Shown here one piece after another: positions 8,751-20,556 of a stretch of DNA of 64,000 bases (its first letter is position 1; every line of letters begins with the position of its first letter). The stretch is taken from the NCBI GenBank assembly GCA_036517375.1, contig DATDWM010000018.1, positions 9,004 to 73,003 of the forward strand, written 5' to 3'. Source of the DNA: Minisyncoccota bacterium. GTDB taxonomy: Bacteria; Patescibacteriota; Minisyncoccia; Phycocordibacterales; UBA9973. The notes below the pieces were generated by a model. The model had not been told where the DNA came from. It saw only the letters and a list, made by a program, of their open reading frames with translations, and ran no database searches. The position numbers and the translations under genes are program-made.

Positions 8751-11153
8751 ATGGAGGGAAATAAATTTTTGCAAAAAAATATGAAAGTAGCTGTATTGTG
8801 CGGTGGGCCTTCCTTAGAACGCGGAATATCTCTCAACTCTGCTCGCAGTATCCTTGACCATCTAGGTAGCCAAGGAGTTGAGATAATACCAATTTACTTC
8901 AACGAACAAAAAAGTCCGTATAAAATTTCTACGGCACAATTATATTCGAACACCCCGAGCGATTTTGACTTTAAACTCGACAATAAATCTAAACTCTCAC
9001 CCACCTCACTAATTCGTATTTTAAAAAGTGTAGACATTGTTTTTCCTTGTATACATGGAAGCTTCGGAGAGGATGGGGAGCTACAGAGCTTCCTCGAAAA
9101 GCACAAGATACCATTTATCGGTTCATCTTCAAGCTCATGTAAGAAGGCCTTCGATAAATACAAAGCGAATGAGTACATTCGCTCGCTTGGATTCTATGCG
9201 CCGAACTCTATTGTCATAAAGATTACCGATTCTTCAAGAGACATTAAGGAAAAAGTAAATAAATTTTGGAAAGATGAGGATATTACTCGCGCGATAGTTA
9301 AGCCCGCGAGCGGCGGATCGAGCATTGGGGTTTTCTCGGTAGAGAATATCTCTGACGCTCTCCTAAGCATAGAAAGCCTCTTTAGTAAACGCATGGATAC
9401 TCGGGTAGTAGTGGAGCCCTTTGCTAGGGGGATAGAATTCACAGTAATTGTTTTAGAAAACAGGCTGAATATGCCGGTGGCTATATTGCCGACAGAAATA
9501 GAGGTAGAATATACGGAAAATCAATTTTTTGACTTCCGTAAAAAATATTTACCTACTCGACATGTTACGTATCATTGCCCACCTAGATTTTCCAACGAAA
9601 TTATTGAAAAAATTCAAATTGAAGCGGAACAGTTGTTTTCTATTTTTGGAATGCAGGATTTTGCTCGCTTCGATGGATTTCTGATGCCGGACGGAAATAT
9701 TTGGTTTTCGGACTTCAATCCTATTTCAGGCATGGAGCAAAACAGCTTTCTTTTCCAGCAGGCTTCACGCATTGGCTTTTCACATCAGGACCTCTTCCGA
9801 TATATTGTAAATAACGCGTGTATGCGTAGAGGAATCTCGGGGGCGGTAGAAAATATTTTTATTGCCGAGGATCGCAAGCCACTAGCGGTTCTTTTCGGCG
9901 GGGAAACGGCGGAAAAGCAGGTTTCATTAATGAGTGGTACGAATGTCTGGCTTAAGTTGCGAGGCTCAGAGATTTATAAACCATTTCCGTACCTACTTGG
10001 CCCAAAGGGCGAGGTCTGGGAGCTACCGTATTCGTATATTCTAAATCATACGGTAGAGGAGATAATTGAAAATGCAAAGAGCGCGGAGCAGGATGTGGAC
10101 AGGCTTTCTTTCCTCATTGAGAAGGTCAAGATTAAATTGTCTTTAAATAGCGGGGACACTACCGAGAACTTCTTTATTCCTAGAAAGTATTCACTCGCTC
10201 AAATACTCCAGAAATTTCCTTTTGTTTTTATAGCTCTCCATGGTGGATTTGGCGAGGATGGCACACTGCAGAAGATTCTAAAAGGTGAAAAAATAAAATT
10301 TAACGGATCCGGAAGCGTTGTTTCAAAATTATGCATGGATAAATGGGAAACGAACGAAACAATAAAAAAAGCACAGATAAAAGGAGTAACCGTGGCTGAG
10401 CACGCCCTGTTCCAAATAAGGGATGTCCCTGAACACACCGACAACGACTTGAAAGAAGTGCATTGGAGGATGCTAGTAGAGCGGCTAAGCACAAAGACCA
10501 TCATCGGAAAGCCAAGAGGGGACGGATGTTCTGCTGGTGTGGTGATGCTTTCTAATGAAAAAGATTTGTCTACTTATATATCATTGATAAAAAATAAAGT
10601 AAAGATTGCCAAGCCACATACTTTCACTAATCAAACACATAGCATCGATATGCCAGAGGGTGATGTGCAGGATATTATTTTCGAATCATTTATCGAGACG
10701 GATAGACTGAAAGTGCACAAAGGGGAAATTACTCATATTCCTAAAAGTGGGTATGTGGAAATGACAGTGGGAGTTTTCGAAGAAAGGGGGAAGGTTAGAT
10801 CATTTTCCCCATCTATTACCATAGCCGAGGATACAATACTTTCTGTAGAAGAAAAATTCCAAGGTGGAACCGGGGTAAACATTACTCCTCCACCAAAAGA
10901 AATTATTTCTACTAAGAACTTGAATAAAGTAAAGAGTTTAGTTGAACAAGTTGCCAAAAAAATAGGGATTCGAGGATATTCAAGGATAGACATCTTCGTT
11001 CACATTAAAACTGGTACTATTATTGTGATTGAAATCAACACTTTACCCGGACTAACCCCATCTACGGTAATATACCATCAAGCTTTGGCGGAAAAGAAGC
11101 CGATGTTCCCGAAGGAATTCCTAGAGCTTTTGATCAAAAATAAGGGGTATTAA
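8751..11153 (+). CDS. ddl: Tandem fusion of two complete D-alanine--D-alanine ligase-like ATP-grasp modules (Ddl-Ddl)
   Basis: First half: MKVAVLCGGPSLERGISLNS...FPCIHGSFGEDGELQ...IVKPASGGSSIGV...ARFDGFL...SDFNPISG. Second half repeats the pattern: PLAVLFGGETAEKQVSLMS...FIALHGGFGEDGTLQ...IIGKPRGDGCSAGV...SRIDIFV...IEINTLPG. 800 aa. The true start may be the MKVAVL ATG at 8781. Confidence 0.8.
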   Translation: MEGNKFLQKNMKVAVLCGGPSLERGISLNSARSILDHLGSQGVEIIPIYFNEQKSPYKISTAQLYSNTPSDFDFKLDNKSKLSPTSLIRILKSVDIVFPCIHGSFGEDGELQSFLEKHKIPFIGSSSSSCKKAFDKYKANEYIRSLGFYAPNSIVIKITDSSRDIKEKVNKFWKDEDITRAIVKPASGGSSIGVFSVENISDALLSIESLFSKRMDTRVVVEPFARGIEFTVIVLENRLNMPVAILPTEIEVEYTENQFFDFRKKYLPTRHVTYHCPPRFSNEIIEKIQIEAEQLFSIFGMQDFARFDGFLMPDGNIWFSDFNPISGMEQNSFLFQQASRIGFSHQDLFRYIVNNACMRRGISGAVENIFIAEDRKPLAVLFGGETAEKQVSLMSGTNVWLKLRGSEIYKPFPYLLGPKGEVWELPYSYILNHTVEEIIENAKSAEQDVDRLSFLIEKVKIKLSLNSGDTTENFFIPRKYSLAQILQKFPFVFIALHGGFGEDGTLQKILKGEKIKFNGSGSVVSKLCMDKWETNETIKKAQIKGVTVAEHALFQIRDVPEHTDNDLKEVHWRMLVERLSTKTIIGKPRGDGCSAGVVMLSNEKDLSTYISLIKNKVKIAKPHTFTNQTHSIDMPEGDVQDIIFESFIETDRLKVHKGEITHIPKSGYVEMTVGVFEERGKVRSFSPSITIAEDTILSVEEKFQGGTGVNITPPPKEIISTKNLNKVKSLVEQVAKKIGIRGYSRIDIFVHIKTGTIIVIEINTLPGLTPSTVIYHQALAEKKPMFPKEFLELLIKNKGY

Positions 11154-11212
11154 GAGGCATGCCTAGGGGCTCAGAGGTTGCATTTTAAGCCTTTTTATAA
11201 TAGTATCTATTC

Positions 11213-11371
11213 ATGTCCCAAGATAGACTAATAAAACTCGCCTGCGGAACCTGTAAGCGTATCAACTACTGGTCCAGCAAGAACAAGAAACTCGTCACTA
11301 AAAAGATTGAGCTCCAAAAGTTTTGCAAGTGGTGCAAGAAGAAAACTAAGCACAAAGAATCTAAGAAATAA
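11213..11371 (+). CDS. rpmG: 50S ribosomal protein L33 (52 aa, absent from the ORF track because it is under 60 aa)
   Basis: My translation: MSQDRLIKLACGTCKRINYWSSKNKKLVTKKIELQKFCKWCKKKTKHKESKK. It matches Cys4-type bacterial L33 (compare B. subtilis [49 protein letters not shown]). Confidence 0.85.
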   Translation: MSQDRLIKLACGTCKRINYWSSKNKKLVTKKIELQKFCKWCKKKTKHKESKK

Positions 11372-11552
11372 GCTTTATTTTACTTTAGTTTTCCTTTGGT
11401 TTTCTTAATTCCTTCTGCTATACTTTAGCCACAACAAAGAGTTTTGTTGTATGTTCTTCTTAAGTAGGAAGCACGATATTTTTTATTTTGTGCTTCCAAA
11501 ACCCGTTTGTGCTTAAGCGGGCTTTTGCTCGTGTAAGGCGTAAACGGGATAA

Positions 11553-11623
11553 GGGCGATTAGTATAATGGTAGTACAAAGGCCTCCAAATCCTTTGGCGG
11601 GGGTTCGATTCCCTCATCGCCCG
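11553..11623 (+). tRNA. tRNA-Trp (anticodon CCA)
   Basis: Manual fold. Acceptor GGGCGAT/ATCGCCC. D-loop has GG. Anticodon loop CUCCAAA is identical to E. coli tRNA-Trp. T-arm GGGGGTTCGATTCCCTC. Discriminator G, no encoded CCA. The 31-39 position is a C-U mismatch. Confidence 0.8.
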
Positions 11624-11653
11624 CAGATTTTTTAGAGTTTCTGATTATATTTC

Positions 11654-11682
11654 TTGACCTAATGACCAAATCAAGGTATATT
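11654..11682 (+). promoter_or_regulatory. Putative promoter driving the island operon: -35 TTGACC (11654-11659), 17-nt spacer, -10 TATATT (11677-11682)
   Basis: Hexamers read directly. Located between tRNA-Trp and the epimerase gene. Confidence 0.4.
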
Positions 11683-11779
11683 ATATTAATATAATAAAAG
11701 AGAAATCGTTGTTATTCTTGATTTAGATAGTACCTTGGTTGATACAGATTTTATTTGAATTAATGTTATACATAATTTT

Positions 11780-12814
11780 ATGACTAAAATTCTTATTACT
11801 GGTGGTTGTGGTTTTATTGGCTCAAATGCGGTTAAGTACTATCTTCAAAAAAATTATAGTGTTCTCGTGCTAGATAATTTAAGCAGGTCTGGTTCTGAGC
11901 AAAATTTAAAATGGTTGCGAACACTTAAGGGTAAATTTTCTTTCAAGAAAATAGATATAACTAGCTACGTTTCTCTAGTAAGGATTTTTAAAGAATTTAA
12001 GCCTGATTTAATTTTACATTTAGCCGGACAAACTACTGTAGTTGGTTCCATATTAGATCCGAGAGAAGATTTTGAGGTTAATGCGCTTGGGACTTTCAAT
12101 TTACTAGAGACAATGAGGAACATAACACCAAAAGCTGCTTTGATTTACTCAAGTACTAATAAGGTAATGGGCAATTTGGAATATGTGCCTATTATAGAAA
12201 AACAGGAACGTTATATATATAAAAATATTAAAAATATTTCAGAAAAATATCAATTAAATTTCCATAGCCCGTATGGTTGTTCAAAGGGGTGTGGTGATCA
12301 GTACGTAACTGATTATGCTAAAGTTTTTAATTTAAATACAGTTGTGTTTAGACAATCTTGTATATATGGTCCTAATCAATTTGGTATGGAAGAACAAGGT
12401 TGGTTGGCGTGGTTTATTATTTCTTCGCTTTTTAATAAAGAAATTACAATCTTTGGTAATGGTAAGCAGGTGAGAGATGTTTTGTATGTGGACGATTTAA
12501 TTGATGCTTATGATCTAGCTTTTGTGAATATAAATAAGACAAAAGGGAAAATTTATAATATAGGTGGAGGGATTGAATTTAACTTATCTCTTTTAGAGTC
12601 TTTAAAAATTATTGGAAATATAGTCGGTAAAAACTTAAAATATAACTTAAGTTCATGGAGAACTGCTGACCAGAAGGTTTATATTTCTGATGTTGCTTTA
12701 GCAAAAAAAGATTTTGGTTGGTATCCAAAAGTTTCTCCTAAAGACGGTCTCAAAAAACTTTACAAATGGGTAGAAGAAAATAAAACTATTTTTAATAAAA
12801 TTTATACCAGATAA
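11780..12814 (+). CDS. NAD-dependent nucleotide-sugar epimerase/dehydratase (extended SDR, CDP-paratose-2-epimerase / UDP-Glc-4-epimerase-like)
   Basis: N-terminal Rossmann ILITGGCGFIGSN, SSTNKVMG, catalytic Y...K (YGCSKGCGDQY). 344 aa. Very AT-rich codon usage. Confidence 0.8.
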   Translation: MTKILITGGCGFIGSNAVKYYLQKNYSVLVLDNLSRSGSEQNLKWLRTLKGKFSFKKIDITSYVSLVRIFKEFKPDLILHLAGQTTVVGSILDPREDFEVNALGTFNLLETMRNITPKAALIYSSTNKVMGNLEYVPIIEKQERYIYKNIKNISEKYQLNFHSPYGCSKGCGDQYVTDYAKVFNLNTVVFRQSCIYGPNQFGMEEQGWLAWFIISSLFNKEITIFGNGKQVRDVLYVDDLIDAYDLAFVNINKTKGKIYNIGGGIEFNLSLLESLKIIGNIVGKNLKYNLSSWRTADQKVYISDVALAKKDFGWYPKVSPKDGLKKLYKWVEENKTIFNKIYTR

Positions 12815-12815
12815 T

Positions 12816-14027
12816 ATGATTTCTAATAAAAAAATGAAGATTTGTATATATGCCCATAGTTTTCCTCCTATCATTGGCGGTGCTCAAACTTATCAATATA
12901 ATCTAGCCGTTGGGTTAGGAAAGTTGGGGCACGAAGTCCTGGTCTTAACCGGTGATATTCCTGATTCTTTAAAACCGAAAATTAAAGACTATAAGTCATC
13001 ATATTTTAAAATAGTAAGAATACCGCTTTTTCGAGAATCAATAAAAATGAAAGCACCATTTAGAGATTTACTAATGGAATCATTCACATTCTTAAAAAAA
13101 TTTAATCCAGACATTATCTATTCCAATGGTTATGTTCCTTGTCTTTTAATTTCTTTAATTAAAGATGGTTTGAGGGCAAAGCACGTTTATAGTTATCACT
13201 CTACTCCAGAATTGGATGTAAATAAACTAGTAGGTATATGGCCAGGGAACTTAGATTTCGAACTTTCAGTGGCAAGATTTATTTTTAATAAAGGATCATT
13301 TGATGCTTATTTAGCTTGCAGTGACAATTATCTTAGCACTGTAAAGAAGAATATTAATTCCCAAATTAAGAATGCTCACCGGATTTATTACGGTGTAGAT
13401 ATATCCAAGTTTTCTTATAAAATTAAAGCTGACAGAGAGAAGTATGGATTTAGTGAAAATGATTTCGTTATTCTCTGCCCTGTGAGATTAATAGAAAGAA
13501 AGGGGATTTTAGATATCTTGCGAGCCATCAGTCAATTAAAGAAAATAATTCCTGGTGTAAAACTTTTAATTCCCACAAGCAAGCTTTCTACTAATGATAA
13601 GTTTAGCAAATTAGTACTCAACCTAATAAAATCTTTAAAAATCGAAAATAACGTAACAATAAGGGTTGATCAGTTTACCATTGATGATATGCCGATGGCA
13701 TACTCACTTTCAGACCTTGTGATATTGCCTTCATATTCAGAAGGGCTAGGTATCGTTTTATTAGAGGCCATGGCGATGAAAAAGCCAGTCGTAGCTACAG
13801 ATATTTCTGGCGTAAATGAAGTAGTTAAACACAATAAAACGGGCTTATTGGTTCCAGTTAAGAGTCCTAAAAAAATTGCTGAAGCAATTAAATTAATCTT
13901 TAGTGATAGCAAGTTAAGAAATAATTTAATCGATGGTGCTTATGCTATGATAGAGAAAGATTTTGAATTGAATAAACAAGTAAAGAAGGTTGAGGGGCTT
14001 TTCAAAAAAGTACATGGAAAAAATTAA
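12816..14027 (+). CDS. GT4-family glycosyltransferase (GT-B fold)
   Basis: C-terminal E-X7-E motif region EGLGIVLLEAMAMKKPVVATDISGVNEVV..TGLLV. N-terminal FPPIIGGAQ. 403 aa. Confidence 0.85.
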   Translation: MISNKKMKICIYAHSFPPIIGGAQTYQYNLAVGLGKLGHEVLVLTGDIPDSLKPKIKDYKSSYFKIVRIPLFRESIKMKAPFRDLLMESFTFLKKFNPDIIYSNGYVPCLLISLIKDGLRAKHVYSYHSTPELDVNKLVGIWPGNLDFELSVARFIFNKGSFDAYLACSDNYLSTVKKNINSQIKNAHRIYYGVDISKFSYKIKADREKYGFSENDFVILCPVRLIERKGILDILRAISQLKKIIPGVKLLIPTSKLSTNDKFSKLVLNLIKSLKIENNVTIRVDQFTIDDMPMAYSLSDLVILPSYSEGLGIVLLEAMAMKKPVVATDISGVNEVVKHNKTGLLVPVKSPKKIAEAIKLIFSDSKLRNNLIDGAYAMIEKDFELNKQVKKVEGLFKKVHGKN

Positions 14028-14634
14028 CTATAAACTAGCTAATAAGATCAAAAAACATATAAAAAATAGCGATCGTCCGCTCATTATTGTGATTTCTGGT
14101 GTTAATGGGGCTGGGAAAACTACTTTGGCTTTTCACTTATCAAATATATTAGATATAAGACAGCGTGTTAGTTTGGGGTCGATAGTAAAAACTTTGATTG
14201 TGATGAATCCTAAAAATAAAGTTATCTCTAAGATGAATAATTATTTCTTTCCTCTTAATAAGGTAGATATACACAAGCAGGCATTAATCATAAGTAAGGC
14301 AACTAACTCAATGATTAAGAAGTATTACATTGGGGGAGTTTCCTGTATTATAGAAGGGGTACAGCTTCTGACTCGTTATCTTGATAAGAACTGTATTCAA
14401 TTCCACATAAAGATAACTAATAAAAAAAAATATAATAAACAACTAAGAAACAGCGACACAAGAAATCCTCGTAATCTTTCTGAGAAAGTATTCGGAAATC
14501 TGTTGGCGGTGAATGATATTTTAAATAATGAGATGGATATGCCAAATGTGAATTGTTTAGAAAACTCCCGGTCCTTAAATGAAAATATAAATATCGTATT
14601 GAAAACTTTAATTATCAATCTTAATATTAAATAA
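14014..14634 (+). CDS. P-loop NTPase, putative small-molecule or nucleotide kinase
   Basis: Walker A IVISGVNGAGKTTLA near the N-terminus. ATG at 14014 is preferred over the ORF-track TTG at 13990. The start overlaps the GT4 stop by 14 nt. The C-terminal half has no recognisable motif. Confidence 0.55.
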   Translation: MEKINYKLANKIKKHIKNSDRPLIIVISGVNGAGKTTLAFHLSNILDIRQRVSLGSIVKTLIVMNPKNKVISKMNNYFFPLNKVDIHKQALIISKATNSMIKKYYIGGVSCIIEGVQLLTRYLDKNCIQFHIKITNKKKYNKQLRNSDTRNPRNLSEKVFGNLLAVNDILNNEMDMPNVNCLENSRSLNENINIVLKTLIINLNIK

Positions 14635-14638
14635 ATTT

Positions 14639-15622
14639 ATGCCCATCGATTTTACTGAAATTAAACAATTATCAAAGGAAGCAAAAGAAATTTCTAATGC
14701 TCTAAGAAAAGAACTTGGAGAGATGCCTCACAAAATTGAGGGAAACTTTATTGCTTTCTTTGGCCGTCAGTACAATCCTGATCATAAATGGAACTGTGCT
14801 CTGAAGCCCTTATGGTCTGGTTTCTATATTAAGTATAACGAATTAGAAATGATGGTTGATCCTGGAATCAATATTCTGGAGCGAGCAGAAAAGATTGGTG
14901 TAAATTTGGCTCGTACTAACACATTATTTATTTCCCACTCACATATCGACCACAAAAACGACTCTAATGTAATTGCTGAGATGGTCTCTTATAGAGAGAA
15001 CCCTGAATTAAATGTGCTATTTTCGAAACACTCTTTAAATGATAACGCAATGAGTCACTACCACTCTTCATCTAGGGAGAATAAGATAATTTTGCTTGAT
15101 GAGAATGAAGAGGTAGAATTATATAACGGTGTTAAACTTAAGCCCGTAGAAGTTGTACATTCAATTAATGGTGCATATGGTTTTGTATTAGACTTGAATG
15201 GAGTAAAAATTGGATACACAGGGGACACAGGCTTTAATACAACTTATAAAAGTGCTGACGGTAGAGAACTATCTGTTTCAGAAAAAGTACTCGACAAAAA
15301 AGATATAGAAGAACCTGGAGCTTTCAATGAGGACCTGAAAACTTTTTTTAGTGAAGTTGATTTATTAGTTTTCAACTTGCATGACGTGGAATTTAGAAAA
15401 CACACTAAACATAATTTATACCACTCTACAGTTTCTGATGCGGTGAAAGTTTTAAGAGATTCAAAAGTAAAACATTGTTTCTTTGAACATTTTAACCCAT
15501 ACGGTGGAGGGTTGGGTTTAGAATATCCTCAAAAAGTAAACCAATATATACGAGAATCTACTGGCAAGGAAACTACCCTTACCCCATTAAACGGAAGTGT
15601 TTATAGCTTAAATAATATTTAA
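14639..15622 (+). CDS. Metallo-beta-lactamase-fold hydrolase
   Basis: HxHxDH motif (FISHSHIDHKND) and downstream GYTGDTG/H residues. 327 aa. Confidence 0.7.
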   Translation: MPIDFTEIKQLSKEAKEISNALRKELGEMPHKIEGNFIAFFGRQYNPDHKWNCALKPLWSGFYIKYNELEMMVDPGINILERAEKIGVNLARTNTLFISHSHIDHKNDSNVIAEMVSYRENPELNVLFSKHSLNDNAMSHYHSSSRENKIILLDENEEVELYNGVKLKPVEVVHSINGAYGFVLDLNGVKIGYTGDTGFNTTYKSADGRELSVSEKVLDKKDIEEPGAFNEDLKTFFSEVDLLVFNLHDVEFRKHTKHNLYHSTVSDAVKVLRDSKVKHCFFEHFNPYGGGLGLEYPQKVNQYIRESTGKETTLTPLNGSVYSLNNI

Positions 15623-15624
15623 TT

Positions 15625-16677
15625 ATGCCAAGTGAAGCACCAAAATTTTTCGTAGATAAAGTTAGAGAGCAAAAGGAGGAAGATCCTAAACCGTATGATG
15701 CTGTTATTTCATTAGAACCTGGTAAAGAAAAAGTGGGCTTCGTTAGAGATAATTTCGTTTGTGAGGTTGTGGACGAAAAGGGAAATGAGTCTACAATTAG
15801 AATTCCAACCTCTATTACATATTCTAGAAAAGATGCGAATGAACCATGGAGTAAGAAGTTGTATGGCTACAGAGAGGGCGTAGGAGAGGCTTTAGATTCA
15901 GAAGAAATGAGTTACTACGTAGTCTACGATCCATCATCTGAATTAAGCTTCCTAGCTATGCCGCTTGAGGATAATACTAGAATTGCACGTAATAAGGACA
16001 ATTTAGACTTGTTTTTAAAAAACGGTCGAGAAGAAGACACTGAATCATTAAAAAAATTGATGGGCGAATTTAAAGACGTGGATTTCGGATTATTCGGTTC
16101 ACGTAGTGTTCTAGGCTCACCAGCAGCAAAAACAGTAGACATAGATTTGATTATTTATGGGCCTGAAGATTTACAAAGAGTAGTTTCTGCGATAGAAGGA
16201 AATAGTGATTTGCGCAAAAAAATAGGTCTAACAGATAGGTCTTCTGAAACAATAGAAAAATATGTAGCTCACTACATGCGAAAATTTAACATTACAGAAA
16301 GTGAGGCCAGGATTATAACCTTAAGAAGAAGGAGGTATATATTAAAACCTAACATTAAGTTATCGTTCAACTGCGCCCTGCCTGATAAAGAGAGAAAAAC
16401 TCCTATTGTTATAGGTTCTAAGAAAATTCATGATATTACAATTGAAGCCACAGCTTTGGATACCTCAATGTCTTCAGCTTTGCCTAGATTATTTTCAGTC
16501 GAAACTGAAGGGGAAAAAATAGATGTTGTGACTGGTAATTGGTCATTAAAAGATTTCATTAGACCAGGAGATAAAGTTAAAGTTATAGGCGCGTTAAGAG
16601 AGTCTAATGGTGTTACTTTTATCTCTTTAGAGAAACCAGGAGATATCATTCTCCCAACTAATAATGATAAGAAATAA
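15625..16677 (+). CDS. Pol-beta-superfamily nucleotidyltransferase with an uncharacterised N-terminal domain of about 140 aa
   Basis: Minimal NTase signature GLFGSRSVLGSPAAKTVDIDLIIYG (GS...DxD) around residue 150-175. I recognise no motif in the flanking domains. 350 aa. Confidence 0.55.
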   Translation: MPSEAPKFFVDKVREQKEEDPKPYDAVISLEPGKEKVGFVRDNFVCEVVDEKGNESTIRIPTSITYSRKDANEPWSKKLYGYREGVGEALDSEEMSYYVVYDPSSELSFLAMPLEDNTRIARNKDNLDLFLKNGREEDTESLKKLMGEFKDVDFGLFGSRSVLGSPAAKTVDIDLIIYGPEDLQRVVSAIEGNSDLRKKIGLTDRSSETIEKYVAHYMRKFNITESEARIITLRRRRYILKPNIKLSFNCALPDKERKTPIVIGSKKIHDITIEATALDTSMSSALPRLFSVETEGEKIDVVTGNWSLKDFIRPGDKVKVIGALRESNGVTFISLEKPGDIILPTNNDKK

Positions 16678-17578
16678 TGACAATACAGAGAAGATCTTAG
16701 TCAATAGTAAATTCGTTAAGAATTTAAATGTTACTGGCGATAAACTTCACTGTGAGGCTGGCCTGTATGTTTCACTTGGCCGTAAGTACGTGATCAAAAA
16801 AATAGGAAGACAATATAAATTAAATTCCACAGAACTTATACTCCTTGAAAAATCTGTATCGAGATACTACGATCATTTAAAAAAAATCATACCTAATAAT
16901 GTTCCTAAAATTTTTCTTACTAAGATAGATAAGGAGAAAAATTGCATTTTATTAGTTACGGAATATTTACCTTTAGGTAAAGTTACAGCTATTAAAGATA
17001 TTTCAATGAAAATTAAATATTTTAATGAAATTATTAAGTTAATACTCAAGATTTCAAACAAGAAAGGCAATACCTCTGGAAATAAACTCAAATGTTCTAT
17101 TGATCCCAATCCAGATAATTTCTTTTTGGATTCAGAAAATAAGATAGTATATAACGATTTCACACCACCGTTGTACAGAGAAAATGGTAAGTGGGTAGAA
17201 TTTAGAAGAAGAGACGAGGCTCATGCAAAAAAATCTGAAAAGGAAACTCGTTATTTTTCCGAAATAAATTTATTGCTGGCATTTATTAATAAAACAAGAT
17301 TGTATCTAACTTTAGATGAATACCTTAAGTTTTCCAGGTCACACTTTTCAACTAATAATAAGGTAAAGCAGTTTGTAAAAATCTTTGATGAAGTTAGATC
17401 TGAGAGGGTAGCAAGTTTCGATAAACTTGAGAAGCATGTCGTGCGAAGAGATTTATTAAGATTTGCCTTGTCCTTTCGCAAGGGTTTAACAAGTACTCAG
17501 GTCGGAGAACTTTACAAGAAATCTAAAAAACCTAACGGTGTTGTATTTCTTGAGAAAAAATATATAAGTTTAATTTAA
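16664..17578 (+). CDS. Hypothetical protein, possibly protein-kinase-like fold (APH / Kdo-kinase-like)
   Basis: CSIDPNPDNFFLD...KIVYNDFTPP resembles the kinase catalytic loop (D-x4-N) plus a DF-type metal-binding motif. The assignment is weak. The start overlaps the previous gene by 14 nt. Confidence 0.4.
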   Translation: MIRNNDNTEKILVNSKFVKNLNVTGDKLHCEAGLYVSLGRKYVIKKIGRQYKLNSTELILLEKSVSRYYDHLKKIIPNNVPKIFLTKIDKEKNCILLVTEYLPLGKVTAIKDISMKIKYFNEIIKLILKISNKKGNTSGNKLKCSIDPNPDNFFLDSENKIVYNDFTPPLYRENGKWVEFRRRDEAHAKKSEKETRYFSEINLLLAFINKTRLYLTLDEYLKFSRSHFSTNNKVKQFVKIFDEVRSERVASFDKLEKHVVRRDLLRFALSFRKGLTSTQVGELYKKSKKPNGVVFLEKKYISLI

Positions 17579-17582
17579 TATT

Positions 17583-18221
17583 ATGAATGAAGTAAATAAA
17601 GATGGTTTTTGTACAATTTACATAGCTAGACATGGAAAAACTGAGTGGAATTTGGAAAAAATAAACCAAGGTCAGTCGGAGTCAAATATTTCTGAGCTCG
17701 GACTTAAGCAAGCACAAGAAGCAAGTCACAAATTAAAAGATGTGAATTTTAGTGCTATATATTCTTCAGATTTATCTATGGCGCATAGAACAGCTGAGAT
17801 TATTAAGGGTAATCGAGATATAGATATTCAAAAATCTAAATCATTAAGAGGTCGTTCATATGGAACTTTTGAGGGTAAAAAGATTGAGGTATATAAGAAC
17901 TTTTTTAAGGATAAGTTAGCTGAAAGAGAAATTTTACCTGAAAAAGAATATATTTCATTTAGACTAGCCCCCGACATTGAAACTGATGAAGATATTACAA
18001 TTAGGTTTATGGGCAAGCTGATGGAAATATCCATTAATCATCCAAATGAGAGTGTGCTTGTGGTTACTCACGGCGGAGATATAAAAAACTTTCTAGTAAA
18101 GGTAGGTTACATCGAAAGGAAATCCTTTAAAGAGGGATCCTTTATTCATGGAGGGTATATGAAAGTAATTTCAGATGGTAATAATTTCTCAGTAGAATTA
18201 ATAGACGGAATAGAAGAATAA
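17583..18221 (+). CDS. Histidine phosphatase superfamily protein (phosphoglycerate-mutase-like)
   Basis: N-terminal IYIARHGKTEWN (RHG catalytic His motif) and downstream conserved His (VVTHGG). 212 aa. Confidence 0.75.
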   Translation: MNEVNKDGFCTIYIARHGKTEWNLEKINQGQSESNISELGLKQAQEASHKLKDVNFSAIYSSDLSMAHRTAEIIKGNRDIDIQKSKSLRGRSYGTFEGKKIEVYKNFFKDKLAEREILPEKEYISFRLAPDIETDEDITIRFMGKLMEISINHPNESVLVVTHGGDIKNFLVKVGYIERKSFKEGSFIHGGYMKVISDGNNFSVELIDGIEE

Positions 18222-18227
18222 TTTTTT

Positions 18228-18998
18228 CTATTTCTTTCTTATTTCAAAAATAACATACATAGGAATTTTTGAATATATTTTGTAGAATTCAGGTTTTACT
18301 TTGAGAACAGATTTCAATGGTTTTGGTTCAATAAAATCTGAAACTATAAACCCGCTTTTTAATATGTCACTTATCATTGCAGAAATAGGTCGATGATAAT
18401 AAGTCACTTTAAAATCATCAGACAGAACATCACTTACTTTTCTTGTAGCTAAGTAATCCCCAAAAATCTTACCTTCTTTAGATCCATTATTTTGATACCC
18501 CATTAGAAAAGATTTTTTACCTACTGCTTTATTTATTTCCGCCCCCCACTTAACTGGGTGGTGTGTTGAAAAAAGAAATGTTCCATTTTTCTTTAGTATT
18601 CTTGAAACTTTAGTAAGTATTTTTGTCCAATCTTTTGAATAGTGTAATGCTAAGCTGGAGTAGATGAAATCAAAAGAATTATCAGGGAAATTTAACTTTT
18701 CCATATCCATAGTATGAAATTCTAAATTAGGGATAGTTTTCTTTAAAAAATTAATACGTTCATTTGATATGTCTATACCAACAACTCTTTTTGCCCCAAG
18801 AGACTTTATATGCTGACATTCTTCACCTGTACCACAACCTATACATAATACCGTTTTTCCTTTTAAGTTTGGAATTTTTTTATACATAGCTGGTTTCTCT
18901 AGATATGTATGCTTTATGTTTTTTCCGCTCCGCATTTTTTCAGCACATTTTATGGTGTATTTATTATAGGATTCGATTGTGGTTTTGTCTGTGGGCAT
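18228..18998 (-). CDS. Class I SAM-dependent methyltransferase
   Basis: Motif I VLCIGCGTGEE and motif post-I VVGIDIS. 256 aa. The only minus-strand gene in the AT-rich island. Confidence 0.75.
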   Translation of the reverse strand: MPTDKTTIESYNKYTIKCAEKMRSGKNIKHTYLEKPAMYKKIPNLKGKTVLCIGCGTGEECQHIKSLGAKRVVGIDISNERINFLKKTIPNLEFHTMDMEKLNFPDNSFDFIYSSLALHYSKDWTKILTKVSRILKKNGTFLFSTHHPVKWGAEINKAVGKKSFLMGYQNNGSKEGKIFGDYLATRKVSDVLSDDFKVTYYHRPISAMISDILKSGFIVSDFIEPKPLKSVLKVKPEFYKIYSKIPMYVIFEIRKK

Positions 18999-19303: not shown

Positions 19304-19924
19304 ATGCCTAACTTTAAATACAAAGCAATAATTTTTGATTATGACGATACTTTAGTCGAAAGCAGAAAGCAAAAGTGGGACCAGCATAAACACGTTGCCA
19401 AGAAATTTTACAACATAGATATTACTGATGGTGACCTAGGAGAGCATTGGGGTAAGCCGCTACATCTACTTGTGGAAGGTTTATATAAACTTTCAGACAC
19501 GGTAGAAAATATCTATACCAACTTAGCATTAACTCGAGACGATTTCAGAAAAGTTGTGTATGAAGGATCGGTCGATTTAGTGAAAAGACTCCTAAAAGAT
19601 AACATAAAAATCGGGGTAGTGTCAGCAACTGCTCGTCGCTTTTTAATTGATGACTTGAAAGATCATGGATTTCCCCTAGAAGATTTTATAATAGTTCAGG
19701 GTGCGGATGATACCCTAGTACACAAGCCGGACCCAGCTGTCTTCACGCCTGTTTTAGAAAAGCTAAGTAAGGAAGGAATTAAAAAAGAAGAAATAACTTA
19801 TGTGGGGGACTCTATCACCGACCTGGAAGCTGCGCATAAGGCAGGAATTAGTTTCGTTGCTATAACCACTGGCCTCTATTCGGAAGAAGATTTTAAAAAA
19901 TTGGGCGCAAAGACTATAATATAA
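19304..19924 (+). CDS. HAD-superfamily hydrolase (phosphatase-like)
   Basis: Motif I FDYDDTLV (DxDxT), motif III K, motif IV VGDSITDLEAAHKAG. 206 aa. Confidence 0.75.
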   Translation: MPNFKYKAIIFDYDDTLVESRKQKWDQHKHVAKKFYNIDITDGDLGEHWGKPLHLLVEGLYKLSDTVENIYTNLALTRDDFRKVVYEGSVDLVKRLLKDNIKIGVVSATARRFLIDDLKDHGFPLEDFIIVQGADDTLVHKPDPAVFTPVLEKLSKEGIKKEEITYVGDSITDLEAAHKAGISFVAITTGLYSEEDFKKLGAKTII

Positions 19925-19962: not shown

Positions 19963-20556
19963 ATGCTAGACTTTTTCGACATCCCATACCTTCTTATTAC
20001 CTTTGGCTACACGGGCATCTTTGTAATCATTTTCCTAGAATCTGGGATATTTTTTCCTCTACCAGGGGATAGCCTGCTTTTTACTGGAGGGCTCTTTGCG
20101 GCCACTATCGGCCTAAATATATACTTTCTACTAGTCGTTGTTTTCGTGGCTACATTTTTAGGCGGATTGGCTGGATACCAGGTTGGCGTTTACTTATACA
20201 AGCTTCACGACTATTCATTTTTCAGAATATTCCTCAAGAAGGAACACATTGACCGCGCGCACATATTTTTTGAAAAGCATGGACAGTTTGCCATTATGTT
20301 CTGCCGGTTTATTCCCATTATTCGCACCTTTACACCCATCGTAGCGGGAGTGGCCAAGATGAACTATCGAGAATTCGTAAAGTATAATACTTACGGTTCA
20401 CTAATCTGGACTTTACTCATTACCTTGCTTGGATTTTTCTTGGGTCACGTTTTCCCGGAAATTCAAAACCACCTATCTTGGATTATTGTTCTAATTGTTT
20501 TAATATCTTTTCTACCATTTTTGTTGAAGCTACGTCCGAAGCGTCGAGCCAAGTGA
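19963..20556 (+). CDS. dedA: DedA-family (VTT domain) membrane protein
   Basis: ESGIFFPLPGDSLLFTGG and RFIPIIRTFTPIVAGVAKM are typical of the DedA/SNARE-associated family. Multiple TM helices. Confidence 0.8.
   Translation: MLDFFDIPYLLITFGYTGIFVIIFLESGIFFPLPGDSLLFTGGLFAATIGLNIYFLLVVVFVATFLGGLAGYQVGVYLYKLHDYSFFRIFLKKEHIDRAHIFFEKHGQFAIMFCRFIPIIRTFTPIVAGVAKMNYREFVKYNTYGSLIWTLLITLLGFFLGHVFPEIQNHLSWIIVLIVLISFLPFLLKLRPKRRAK

Follow-up and report, generated by a model that had tools for sequence, protein, structure and literature searches.

A conserved carbohydrate- and phosphate-related gene module in Minisyncoccota and its possible role in the synthesis of a soluble glycosyl-inositol-type metabolite

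A dense cluster of eight genes in a 64,000-nucleotide stretch of DNA from a Minisyncoccota bacterium (assembly GCA_036517375.1, contig DATDWM010000018.1; the whole stretch is referred to here as the window) raises the question of what product would result from the combined action of sugar-epimerising, glycosyl-transferring, phosphate-transferring and nucleotide-transferring enzymes. An initial annotation of this DNA had described the cluster as an apparently complete but non-canonical toolkit for sugar or nucleotide activation and transfer. We tentatively propose, at a likelihood slightly short of even, that it represents a horizontally mobile operon, found mainly in Paceibacterota/Nomurabacteria, which encodes a cytoplasmic pathway to a soluble, phosphorylated small molecule of the hexosyl-inositol type (a glycosyl-cyclitol). 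All eight of the open reading frames (ORFs) described initially are present between positions 11780 and 18998, and their family assignments hold with refinements drawn from the coordinates and from matches in Pfam, PDB and NCBIfam:

11780-12814, plus strand: short-chain dehydrogenase/reductase (SDR), NAD-dependent, TyvE family (Pfam Epimerase/GDP_Man_Dehyd; PDB matches)
12816-14027, plus strand: soluble GT4 glycosyltransferase, GT-B fold, retaining-type (Pfam Glycos_transf_1, 3.5e-36; Glyco_transf_4, 2e-17)
13990/14014-14634, plus strand: small P-loop kinase, true start at ATG 14014 (14014-14634), overlapping the GT4 stop by 14 nt (Walker A motif GVNGAGKTT)
14639-15622, plus strand: metallo-beta-lactamase (MBL)-fold hydrolase of the RNase Z/PNGM-1/Apyc1 type (Lactamase_B_2, 47.4 bits vs cut-off 27; SHSHIDH (HxHxDH) motif)
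15625-16677, plus strand: three-part nucleotidyltransferase (NTase), with an N-terminal domain (residues 1-120) for which the model resolves no fold, a Pol-beta core (approximately 120-250) and a predicted C-terminal OB fold (approximately 260-345)
16664-17578, plus strand: orphan protein-kinase-like (PKL) enzyme, here termed the kinase-fold protein (predicted fold, pLDDT 87; complete catalytic set)
17583-18221, plus strand: histidine phosphatase of branch 1, PhoE-like (His_Phos_1, 4e-35; PDB 1ebb/1h2e, 4e-18; RHG and THGG motifs)
18228-18998, minus strand: class I S-adenosylmethionine (SAM)-dependent methyltransferase, convergent with the operon (Methyltransf_11, 4e-24)

The seven genes on the plus strand (11780-18221) are arranged head to tail, with junctions consisting of gaps of 1-4 nt or overlaps of 14 nt, which indicates an operon-like organisation. 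The window is part of a Candidatus Paceibacterota genome, and the translated products of two of its ORFs are identical to the NCBI entries VJC14_02355 and VJC14_02360.

A six-gene core conserved among related loci

Fourteen distinct loci harboring members of the close NTase family were collected, their genes were mapped by tblastn and gene order was judged where the contig was long enough (related loci are labelled L001-L031 and individual homologues P0058-P0205). A core of six genes, coding for the SDR, GT4, P-loop kinase, MBL hydrolase, NTase and kinase-fold protein, is found in the same order in all 14 loci, which belong to Paceibacterota/Nomurabacteria, and the flanking regions differ. The six core genes are also all present in an outgroup locus (L018; NTase amino acid identity: 39%; GC content: 0.50), together with a gene for a NodU-like O-carbamoyltransferase. 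Furthermore, a gene encoding inositol-3-phosphate synthase (TIGR03450; 430 bits; full length) adjoins the core in 11 of the 14 loci.

Two more distant clusters retain subsets of these genes. The first (L013) encodes an SDR outside the TyvE family, a GT4, an MBL, an NTase relative and a P-loop protein, along with a GT9 family glycosyltransferase and a methyltransferase, while the second (L017) encodes two GT4 enzymes, a PIG-L deacetylase, a P-loop homologue, an NTase relative and, in the place of the MBL, an Exo_endo_phos (EEP) phosphodiesterase. The NTase is persistently accompanied by a GT4, an enzyme resembling 2-phosphoglycerate kinase and a phosphodiesterase of either the MBL or EEP type; an epimerase for a nucleoside diphosphate (NDP)-hexose and an inositol-phosphate synthase are usual, and sugar-tailoring enzymes occur in some cases. 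The co-occurrence of these families elsewhere, proposed in the initial annotation as a check, could thus be demonstrated, with the core in the 14 loci and L018 and subsets in L013 and L017. A further context is provided by Ca. Bipolaricaulis sibiricus (CP034928.1; L031, positions 9195-13602), where a run of genes encodes an ATP-grasp protein (weak Ins134_P3_kin match), a P-loop homologue (30% identity), two MscS proteins and an inositol-phosphate synthase. The P-loop gene is located 1.8 kb upstream of the synthase gene, with the two MscS genes between them, and this run suggests an inositol-phosphate-based osmolyte module in another phylum.

The genes of the cluster are a real conserved functional module concerned with carbohydrate and phosphate chemistry, since it comprises a TyvE-like epimerase and a BshA-like GT4, to which the related loci add inositol-3-phosphate synthase, a NodU-like carbamoyltransferase, a PIG-L deacetylase or a GT9. 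That unrelated housekeeping genes should instead have come to lie side by side by chance or shared ancestry is barely credible. The close relatives all belong to one class, such that some synteny would be expected by descent. However, the order of the core is maintained while the flanks differ in nearly every locus, the set has survived rearrangement in the 39%-identical outgroup with its different GC content, and the genes overlap or abut. Moreover, the initial annotation had named profile assignments to unrelated housekeeping roles as one result that would refute it, and comparison against NCBIfam places no core protein above any housekeeping equivalog cut-off.

Several genes vary around this core. 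A protein of approximately 300 amino acids with weak similarity to the transglutaminase core is encoded in 7/14 loci, mostly between the SDR and GT4 genes, and was located at the following positions:

L001, 1985-2896: transglutaminase-like protein
L003, 5184-6143: transglutaminase-like protein
L005, 6281-7189: transglutaminase-like protein
L008, 5262-6125: transglutaminase-like protein

None of the seven loci with this gene (0/7) carries the phosphatase-methyltransferase tail seen in the window, where the phosphatase gene follows the core and meets the convergent methyltransferase gene. This tail is present in 6/14 loci and its two genes travel together. The His-phosphatase gene itself follows the core in six of the 14 loci, is represented in L003 by a homologue located approximately 2 kb upstream and is missing from the other 7/14, and the enzyme is an accessory member of the cluster. 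Orthologs of the methyltransferase (79-82% amino acid identity) occupy the same position in L007, L009, L020, L021 and L027. The initial annotation called this enzyme divergent; it is an ordinary class I methyltransferase which is encoded on the opposite strand.

Family assignments of the cluster enzymes

The most specific assignment was obtained for the SDR, which aligns over its full length with the solved CDP-tyvelose 2-epimerases of Thermodesulfatator (9RL0; E 7.6e-101; residues 3-332) and Salmonella (1ORR; E 9.3e-93), with e-values in the range 1e-93 to 1e-101, while the next-best PDB matches, dTDP-glucose dehydratases and GalE, have e-values near or above 1e-38. TyvE interconverts CDP-glucose and CDP-mannose. 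The roles of the TyvE active-site residues, including a Tyr203-Asp204 loop which closes over the cytosine of CDP, have been described (PMC13098431), and the Thermodesulfatator enzyme has been shown to convert CDP-glucose to CDP-mannose (PMC13098431, PMC7851689). The catalytic Thr124, Tyr164 and Lys168, as well as Asn125 and Arg299, are kept in the window protein, and the motifs STNK, YGCSK and WR..DQK align between it and the cluster orthologs, among which the L008 SDR is the sole one with Ser replacing Arg299. By contrast, the cytosine-capping Tyr203-Asp204 pair of the Thermodesulfatator enzyme is replaced by Glu-Glu in the window (QFGMEEQGW) and reads x-Glu-(Glu/Gly/Asp) in the other 10 of the 11 aligned TyvE-like cluster orthologs, and the 3,6-dideoxyhexose (tyvelose) pathway is missing from the surroundings of the gene. 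On the strength of these alignments, the SDR is probably a C-2 epimerase of an NDP-hexose of the glucose/mannose type. As the capping residues are changed in all aligned TyvE-like orthologs, its nucleotide, and perhaps its sugar, may differ from those of a CDP-hexose. The occurrence of a TyvE-type 2-epimerase in a context other than dideoxyhexose O-antigens, and with alterations at the residues that contact the nucleotide, is of practical interest to the enzymology of sugar nucleotides.

The best PDB matches of the GT4 are to BshA (2jjm/3mbo/5d00; E approximately 2e-21; full length), and its sequence is closest to the BshA-type small-molecule glycosyltransferases. Both relevant NCBIfam equivalog cut-offs are missed, that of BshA with 92.9 bits against 273.7 and that of MshA with 76.1 bits against 462.5.

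The translated product of the P-loop gene is taken to begin at ATG 14014 because the alignment of its orthologs begins at MEKIN. All nine orthologs (9/9) match NCBIfam PRK04220 (2-phosphoglycerate kinase; best e-value: 3e-15) and five of the nine match PRK12339 (mevalonate-3-phosphate 5-kinase), while residues 13-200 of the window protein align to positions 83-289 of PRK04220 (39 bits vs cut-off 343). Several relatives are named "2-phosphoglycerate kinase" in JGI, and weak TsaE matches were also observed. The window protein and all its orthologs match this group (COG2074) along most of their length; they differ from it in scoring approximately one tenth of the cut-offs, in having other genomic partners and in lacking the ATP-cone of the canonical enzymes P0203-P0205. 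The protein is a remote member of the 2-phosphoglycerate kinase/mevalonate-3-phosphate 5-kinase group. For the MBL-fold protein, weak matches to RNase Z, GntH, PNGM-1 and Apyc1 were found, and its score lies under the RNase Z equivalog cut-off (TIGR02651; 39.6 bits vs 293). These affinities point to the phosphodiesterase branch of the superfamily, and the enzyme is probably a phosphodiesterase.

In the kinase-fold protein the catalytic Lys and Glu, the D..N loop and the metal-binding Asp are all conserved, and the protein is equidistant from protein kinases, APH, Rio/Bud32, LicA and WaaP. No match to an APH family model was found in Pfam, and neither the sequence searches nor the structural comparisons returned a specific or closer family. 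The original description as APH/Kdo-kinase-like is therefore sound at the level of the superfamily, as judged by fold and catalytic residues, and fails at the level of a specific family. The enzyme is a probable small-molecule kinase. Near residue 228 the window copy lacks eight residues (consensus VEWLSNEI) which are present in 22/22 aligned homologues, the gene being otherwise intact. One homologue of 503 aa (P0058), encoded on a Logan contig of 5124 nt, combines kinase-fold protein and His-phosphatase in one polypeptide, representing either a true fusion or a merged gene call.

The NTase of the window matches nothing in Pfam, NCBIfam, the PDB sequences, PHROG or PADLOC. Its membership in the Pol-beta superfamily can be traced through the motifs FGLFGS...DIDL, which are invariant, and through the hG[GS] and DxD catalytic motifs (G155, G158, S159, D172 and D174), which are invariant in 25 sequences with identities as low as 20%. 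With PF01909 (cut-off 21) the window protein gives no match and a close homologue scores 18.5 bits, while scores of 21.9-23.7 bits were obtained for five relatives, whose linking profile e-values range from 8e-43 to 1e-13. Among the PDB sequences, a profile of the family finds only weak matches, namely MNT, Trf4 and TUTase. In the AlphaFold model, which is of low confidence (pLDDT 58), only the OB domain gave usable Foldseek matches, with the predicted C-terminal fold resembling the LysRS anticodon-binding domain and RPA (E approximately 5e-5).

This NTase family is rare. It has 32 close homologues among 5.8 billion proteins, and an exhaustive profile search returned 87 representatives of the wider family among 1.84 billion. 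Among 185,579 species representatives, the NTase was found in four, which are all Nomurabacteria or Paceibacterota. A wider scan of metagenomes with alignments of the distant family found no stretch conserved enough to serve. In one distant NTase-OB relative (P0115; 440 aa), the C-terminal domain shows a weak PqqD-like similarity (E 4e-4) of the peptide-recognition type, which hints that some members of the family may act on peptides. Two distant relatives are encoded beside a nucleoside-diphosphate kinase (NDK) on unrelated contigs. In L015 (2252-4911) the run comprises a His-phosphatase, the NTase relative, NDK and a NUDIX hydrolase, on a contig of phage-like appearance that also encodes RecA, a PD-(D/E)XK protein, an M23 peptidase and a protein of 1945 aa or more, while in L019 (165-1808) the relative adjoins NDK.

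Four of the cluster enzymes fit no characterised family. The initial claim that each step is performed by an unusual family can be upheld for the NTase and the kinase-fold protein, which represent orphan families, and does not extend to the epimerase, GT4, phosphatase and methyltransferase, which are standard.

The OB fold, with its resemblance to the tRNA anticodon-binding domain of LysRS and to RPA, raises an alternative in which the cluster would modify or repair the ends of RNA or tRNA, with the NTase acting beside an RNase Z-like nuclease, a polynucleotide-type kinase, a phosphatase and a Hen1-like methyltransferase. The proximity of the NTase core to MNT, Trf4 and TUTase, the weak RNase Z matches of the MBL and the weak TsaE matches of the P-loop protein are in keeping with such a function. 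We consider it very unlikely, as all of these matches are weak or generic and the NTase family is tied to sugar enzymes (SDR, GT4, inositol-phosphate synthase, carbamoyltransferase, PIG-L or GT9) in every informative context. In addition, a ligase, a Hen1-specific domain and an RNA element are all lacking from the region, and both the methyltransferase and the phosphatase are optional.

A second alternative concerns the origin of the activated sugar. The TyvE-like SDR and the GT4 need an NDP-hexose, yet no cluster protein matches a canonical sugar-1-phosphate nucleotidyltransferase (RmlA/GalU/GlmU, NTP_transferase) in Pfam or NCBIfam. The cluster could constitute, in line with the parallel to ADP-heptose drawn in the initial annotation, a non-canonical route of NDP-sugar or NDP-cyclitol activation, in which a kinase would form a bisphosphate, the phosphatase would remove one phosphate, the NTase would form the NDP-sugar, and the SDR and GT4 would epimerise and transfer it. 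2-Phosphoglycerate kinase and mevalonate-3-phosphate 5-kinase, the models matched by the P-loop relatives, convert monophosphates to bisphosphates, and the location of distant NTase relatives beside NDK in two cases, and beside NUDIX and His-phosphatase genes in one, fits the making and breaking of an NDP-linked compound. In L003 (761-1691), L005 (4392-4883) and L007 (4609-5082), NUDIX genes are also found in the few kb that precede the cluster, while no NUDIX hydrolase was found in the window. The changed cytosine-capping residues would further suit an unusual nucleotide, and the GT9 of L013 belongs to the heptosyltransferase family.

Compared with the ADP-heptose pathway itself (GmhA, HldE/HddA, GmhB, HldC, HldD and GT9), the cluster comprises the same reaction types, namely kinase, phosphatase, nucleotidyltransferase, SDR epimerase and glycosyltransferase. 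However, none of its proteins falls in the corresponding family (heptose epimerase model: 65.6 bits vs cut-off 274.6), GT9 is restricted to L013, and the phosphatase is optional, being missing from half of the loci. The route also leaves the MBL/EEP phosphodiesterase, the second kinase and the OB fold without a role, and housekeeping UDP-sugars could supply the GT4. We know of no Pol-beta-fold enzyme that forms the pyrophosphate bond of a sugar nucleotide, which likewise counts against this alternative, and we regard it as rather improbable. The same low likelihood attaches to the proposition that the NTase-OB family constitutes a new nucleotidyltransferase class which converts a phosphorylated sugar or cyclitol into an activated, NDP-linked donor. 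With the 2-phosphoglycerate-kinase-like and kinase-fold enzymes, it would then provide bacteria of reduced genome size with a complete route to an unusual NDP-hexose or NDP-cyclitol, non-homologous to the canonical one and followed by epimerisation through a TyvE-like enzyme of altered nucleotide specificity and by GT4 transfer. Were the NTase to make such a donor, it would perform a central step of glycobiology in a new way.

A candidate glycosyl-inositol product and its known counterparts

The explanation we favor, a cytoplasmic route to a soluble hexosyl-inositol-type molecule, draws together the conserved six-gene core, its linkage to inositol-3-phosphate synthase, the inositol context in Ca. 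Bipolaricaulis, the TyvE and BshA affinities, the joined kinase and phosphatase and the soluble nature of the proteins. Inositol-3-phosphate would serve as the scaffold, supplied in most of the relatives by the cluster-adjacent synthase and in this genome from elsewhere. The TyvE-like SDR would invert C-2 of an NDP-hexose and thereby set the configuration of the hexose, which the BshA/MshA-like GT4 would couple to the acceptor to produce a glycoside. Phosphates may be added by the 2-phosphoglycerate-kinase-like P-loop enzyme and the kinase-fold enzyme, and the NTase may join a nucleotide to a hydroxyl of the scaffold, as ANT does on aminoglycosides, or to a scaffold phosphate. The MBL phosphodiesterase and the His-phosphatase would trim or resolve the phosphate and nucleotide groups, and the methyltransferase would tailor the product. 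All substrates, the order of the steps and the role of the product, whether an osmolyte-like solute, a cofactor or a toxin, are inferred here; of these roles, that of an osmolyte-like solute is hinted at by the one context with MscS genes.

The combination of a soluble GT4 with a cyclitol, with or without a PIG-L deacetylase, follows the logic of MshA/MshB in mycothiol synthesis and of the aminoglycoside pseudodisaccharide enzymes NeoD/BtrM and BtrD, while the hydroxyls of glycosyl-cyclitols are modified by APH enzymes, which have a kinase fold, and ANT enzymes, which have a Pol-beta fold. Nevertheless, a number of observations weigh against a hexosyl-inositol product. An inositol-3-phosphate synthase could not be found by tblastn in the whole 64-kb window, so that the toolkit is not complete as initially described, and L009 and L021 likewise have no such gene nearby; these three loci indicate that inositol may not be obligatory. 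The GT4 scores far short of both equivalog cut-offs, those of MshA and of BshA, the substrates of the NTase, kinase-fold, P-loop and MBL enzymes are not assigned by any evidence, and the MscS link derives from one genome only. The NTase model is poor (pLDDT 58), and the OB fold predicted in it resembles nucleic-acid-binding domains. The addition and subsequent removal of phosphate and nucleotide groups would also be costly for a very small genome.

When set beside the ADP-heptose, mycothiol/bacillithiol and aminoglycoside pathways, the cluster fails at least one defining feature of each, the membership of the SDR in the TyvE family being the exception among the assignments. As in mycothiol and bacillithiol synthesis (Ino1, MshA or BshA, the MshA2 phosphatase and the PIG-L enzymes MshB/BshB), the related loci encode both an inositol-3-phosphate synthase of actinobacterial type and a soluble GT4 whose nearest solved structures are BshA enzymes, and have in common with these pathways the phosphatase that follows the core in 6/14 loci and, in one distant cluster, a PIG-L deacetylase. 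In contrast, the cluster lacks a cysteine ligase and an acetyltransferase, the window lacks the synthase and the deacetylase, the GT4 scores far below the MshA/BshA cut-offs, and the two kinases, NTase and MBL have no counterpart in those pathways. A true mycothiol or bacillithiol pathway was dropped in view of the missing later enzymes, and di-myo-inositol-phosphate synthesis in view of the lack of an IPCT/DIPPS-type enzyme. Transfer of inositol from an NDP-inositol by the GT4 was dropped as chemically implausible for a glycosyltransferase.

The resemblance to aminoglycoside pseudodisaccharide synthesis (the GT4 enzymes NeoD/BtrM, the PIG-L enzyme BtrD, APH, ANT and TobZ) lies in the folds, with a GT4, a kinase-like protein and a Pol-beta NTase in the cluster and PIG-L and carbamoyltransferase genes in the relatives, and the implied glycosyl-cyclitol scaffold is of the same type. 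The cluster differs in having no aminotransferases, dehydrogenases or exporters, its kinase-fold protein and NTase are not members of APH and ANT by sequence, and the NTase has an OB fold and an additional N-terminal domain when compared with ANT. The same chemistry as proposed above could serve an antagonistic role, in which case the cluster would produce a toxin resembling an aminoglycoside or a nucleoside, and self-protection would be provided by the kinase-fold protein and NTase together with the phosphatase and phosphodiesterase. In established aminoglycoside clusters, counterparts exist for the GT4 and cyclitol synthase, the APH-like and ANT-like folds, the TobZ/NodU-type carbamoyltransferase (L018) and the PIG-L deacetylase (L017), and the patchy distribution of the island is in agreement with such a role. 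This is nonetheless a decidedly unlikely explanation, given that no aminotransferase, inosose dehydrogenase, amidinotransferase, exporter or regulator is encoded in any locus and that the kinase-fold protein matches no APH family model; bacteria of this group, with their very small genomes, are not known to produce antibiotics. The alternative of an aminoglycoside-like metabolite that had been raised initially is thus retained with regard to its chemistry, a glycosyl-cyclitol acted on by a kinase and an NTase, and loses ground with regard to the aminotransferases and dehydrogenases it requires.

No membrane segments were predicted in any of the eight proteins, and the cluster encodes no flippase, polymerase or priming transferase. 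Decoration of a cell-surface glycan, the use suggested in the initial annotation, is weakened by these absences and by the lack of export genes, and was dropped as an explanation.

The cluster is best rated as a sugar-nucleotide-dependent small-molecule pathway with two orphan enzyme families. Targeted full-text literature searches returned no description of the cluster, of the NTase-OB family or of inositol synthesis in this bacterial group. The genome described here belongs to the Candidate Phyla Radiation, whose members have very small genomes, such that a conserved operon of 8-10 genes represents a considerable investment and is probably important for the way these bacteria live. If a hexosyl-inositol is indeed the product, it would constitute an inositol-based glycoside not previously described, in bacteria regarded as nearly devoid of biosynthetic capacity, and would provide the first functional contexts for two orphan families, the Pol-beta NTases that carry an OB fold and a novel family of kinase-fold proteins.

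The low-GC island and its neighbouring genes

The cluster forms a low-GC island (GC content: 0.320, vs 0.409 for the rest of the window and its flanks), and its GC content resembles that of the low-GC genomes of the relatives and not that of its own flanks. The following elements lie at its left edge:

11553-11624, plus strand: tRNA-Trp (cca), predicted by ARAGORN and matched by the Rfam tRNA model (64 bits), at the left edge of the low-GC island
11654-11682, plus strand: weak promoter-like site, TTGACC-17-TATATT, found by consensus scan between the tRNA and the first gene

The tRNA gene ends 156 nt before the first gene of the cluster and possibly represents an integration landmark. A tRNA gene is situated just upstream of the cluster in four loci and is a different one in each, namely Gln-ctg in L005 (4976-5047), Gln-ttg in L008 (4585-4656), Ile-tat in L027 (4749-4823) and Trp-cca in the window, while in L003 an insertion sequence (IS) element (rve) is found upstream of the cluster instead of a tRNA. 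A search for flanking direct repeats marking the ends of the island gave short chance repeats only, and the scan of the region for promoters and terminators found no more sites than expected from shuffled sequence. The tRNA was the sole RNA element detected by the Rfam scan of the region, in which no riboswitch, and hence no clue to a ligand, was found. Lateral acquisition between related bacteria is the simplest reading of the island, one which is not proven.

The variable location of the island beside tRNA genes would also be in keeping with an anti-phage or inter-genome conflict system, in which the encoded enzymes would make or destroy a nucleotide signal. In this respect, the GT4 passes the cut-off of the Pfam model "GT4-conflict" (44.7 bits vs 26), the MBL shows a weak affinity to Apyc1 and one distant NTase relative is located on a phage-like contig. 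The GT4-conflict match is, however, to the generic donor-binding half only and is far weaker than those to the general GT4 models, and PADLOC returns only generic P-loop and methyltransferase matches, with none for the GT4, MBL, NTase, kinase-fold protein or phosphatase. No effector, sensor or toxin domain was observed, and searches of IMG/VR, PHROGs, phage records and plasmid records gave no matches to the NTase family. As the linkage to inositol-phosphate synthase would also be left unexplained, a defensive function is highly improbable.

The regions on both sides of the island encode housekeeping functions. Upstream are genes for an M50 protease, methionine aminopeptidase, a tandem D-Ala-D-Ala ligase, L33 and tRNA-Trp, while the downstream flank comprises a HAD hydrolase, DedA, MiaA, an EPSP-synthase-fold enzyme, which is probably MurA, and tRNA-Leu. 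The HAD phosphatase (19304-19924) and the DedA/UptA-like membrane protein (19963-20556) directly follow the island. They are placed outside the cluster because their GC content of 0.38-0.41 is flank-like and because they are missing from the related loci. The tandem ligase (8751-11153, plus strand) is a protein of 800 amino acids with two complete D-Ala-D-Ala ligase modules, Dala_Dala_lig_N and Dala_Dala_lig_C each matching it twice.

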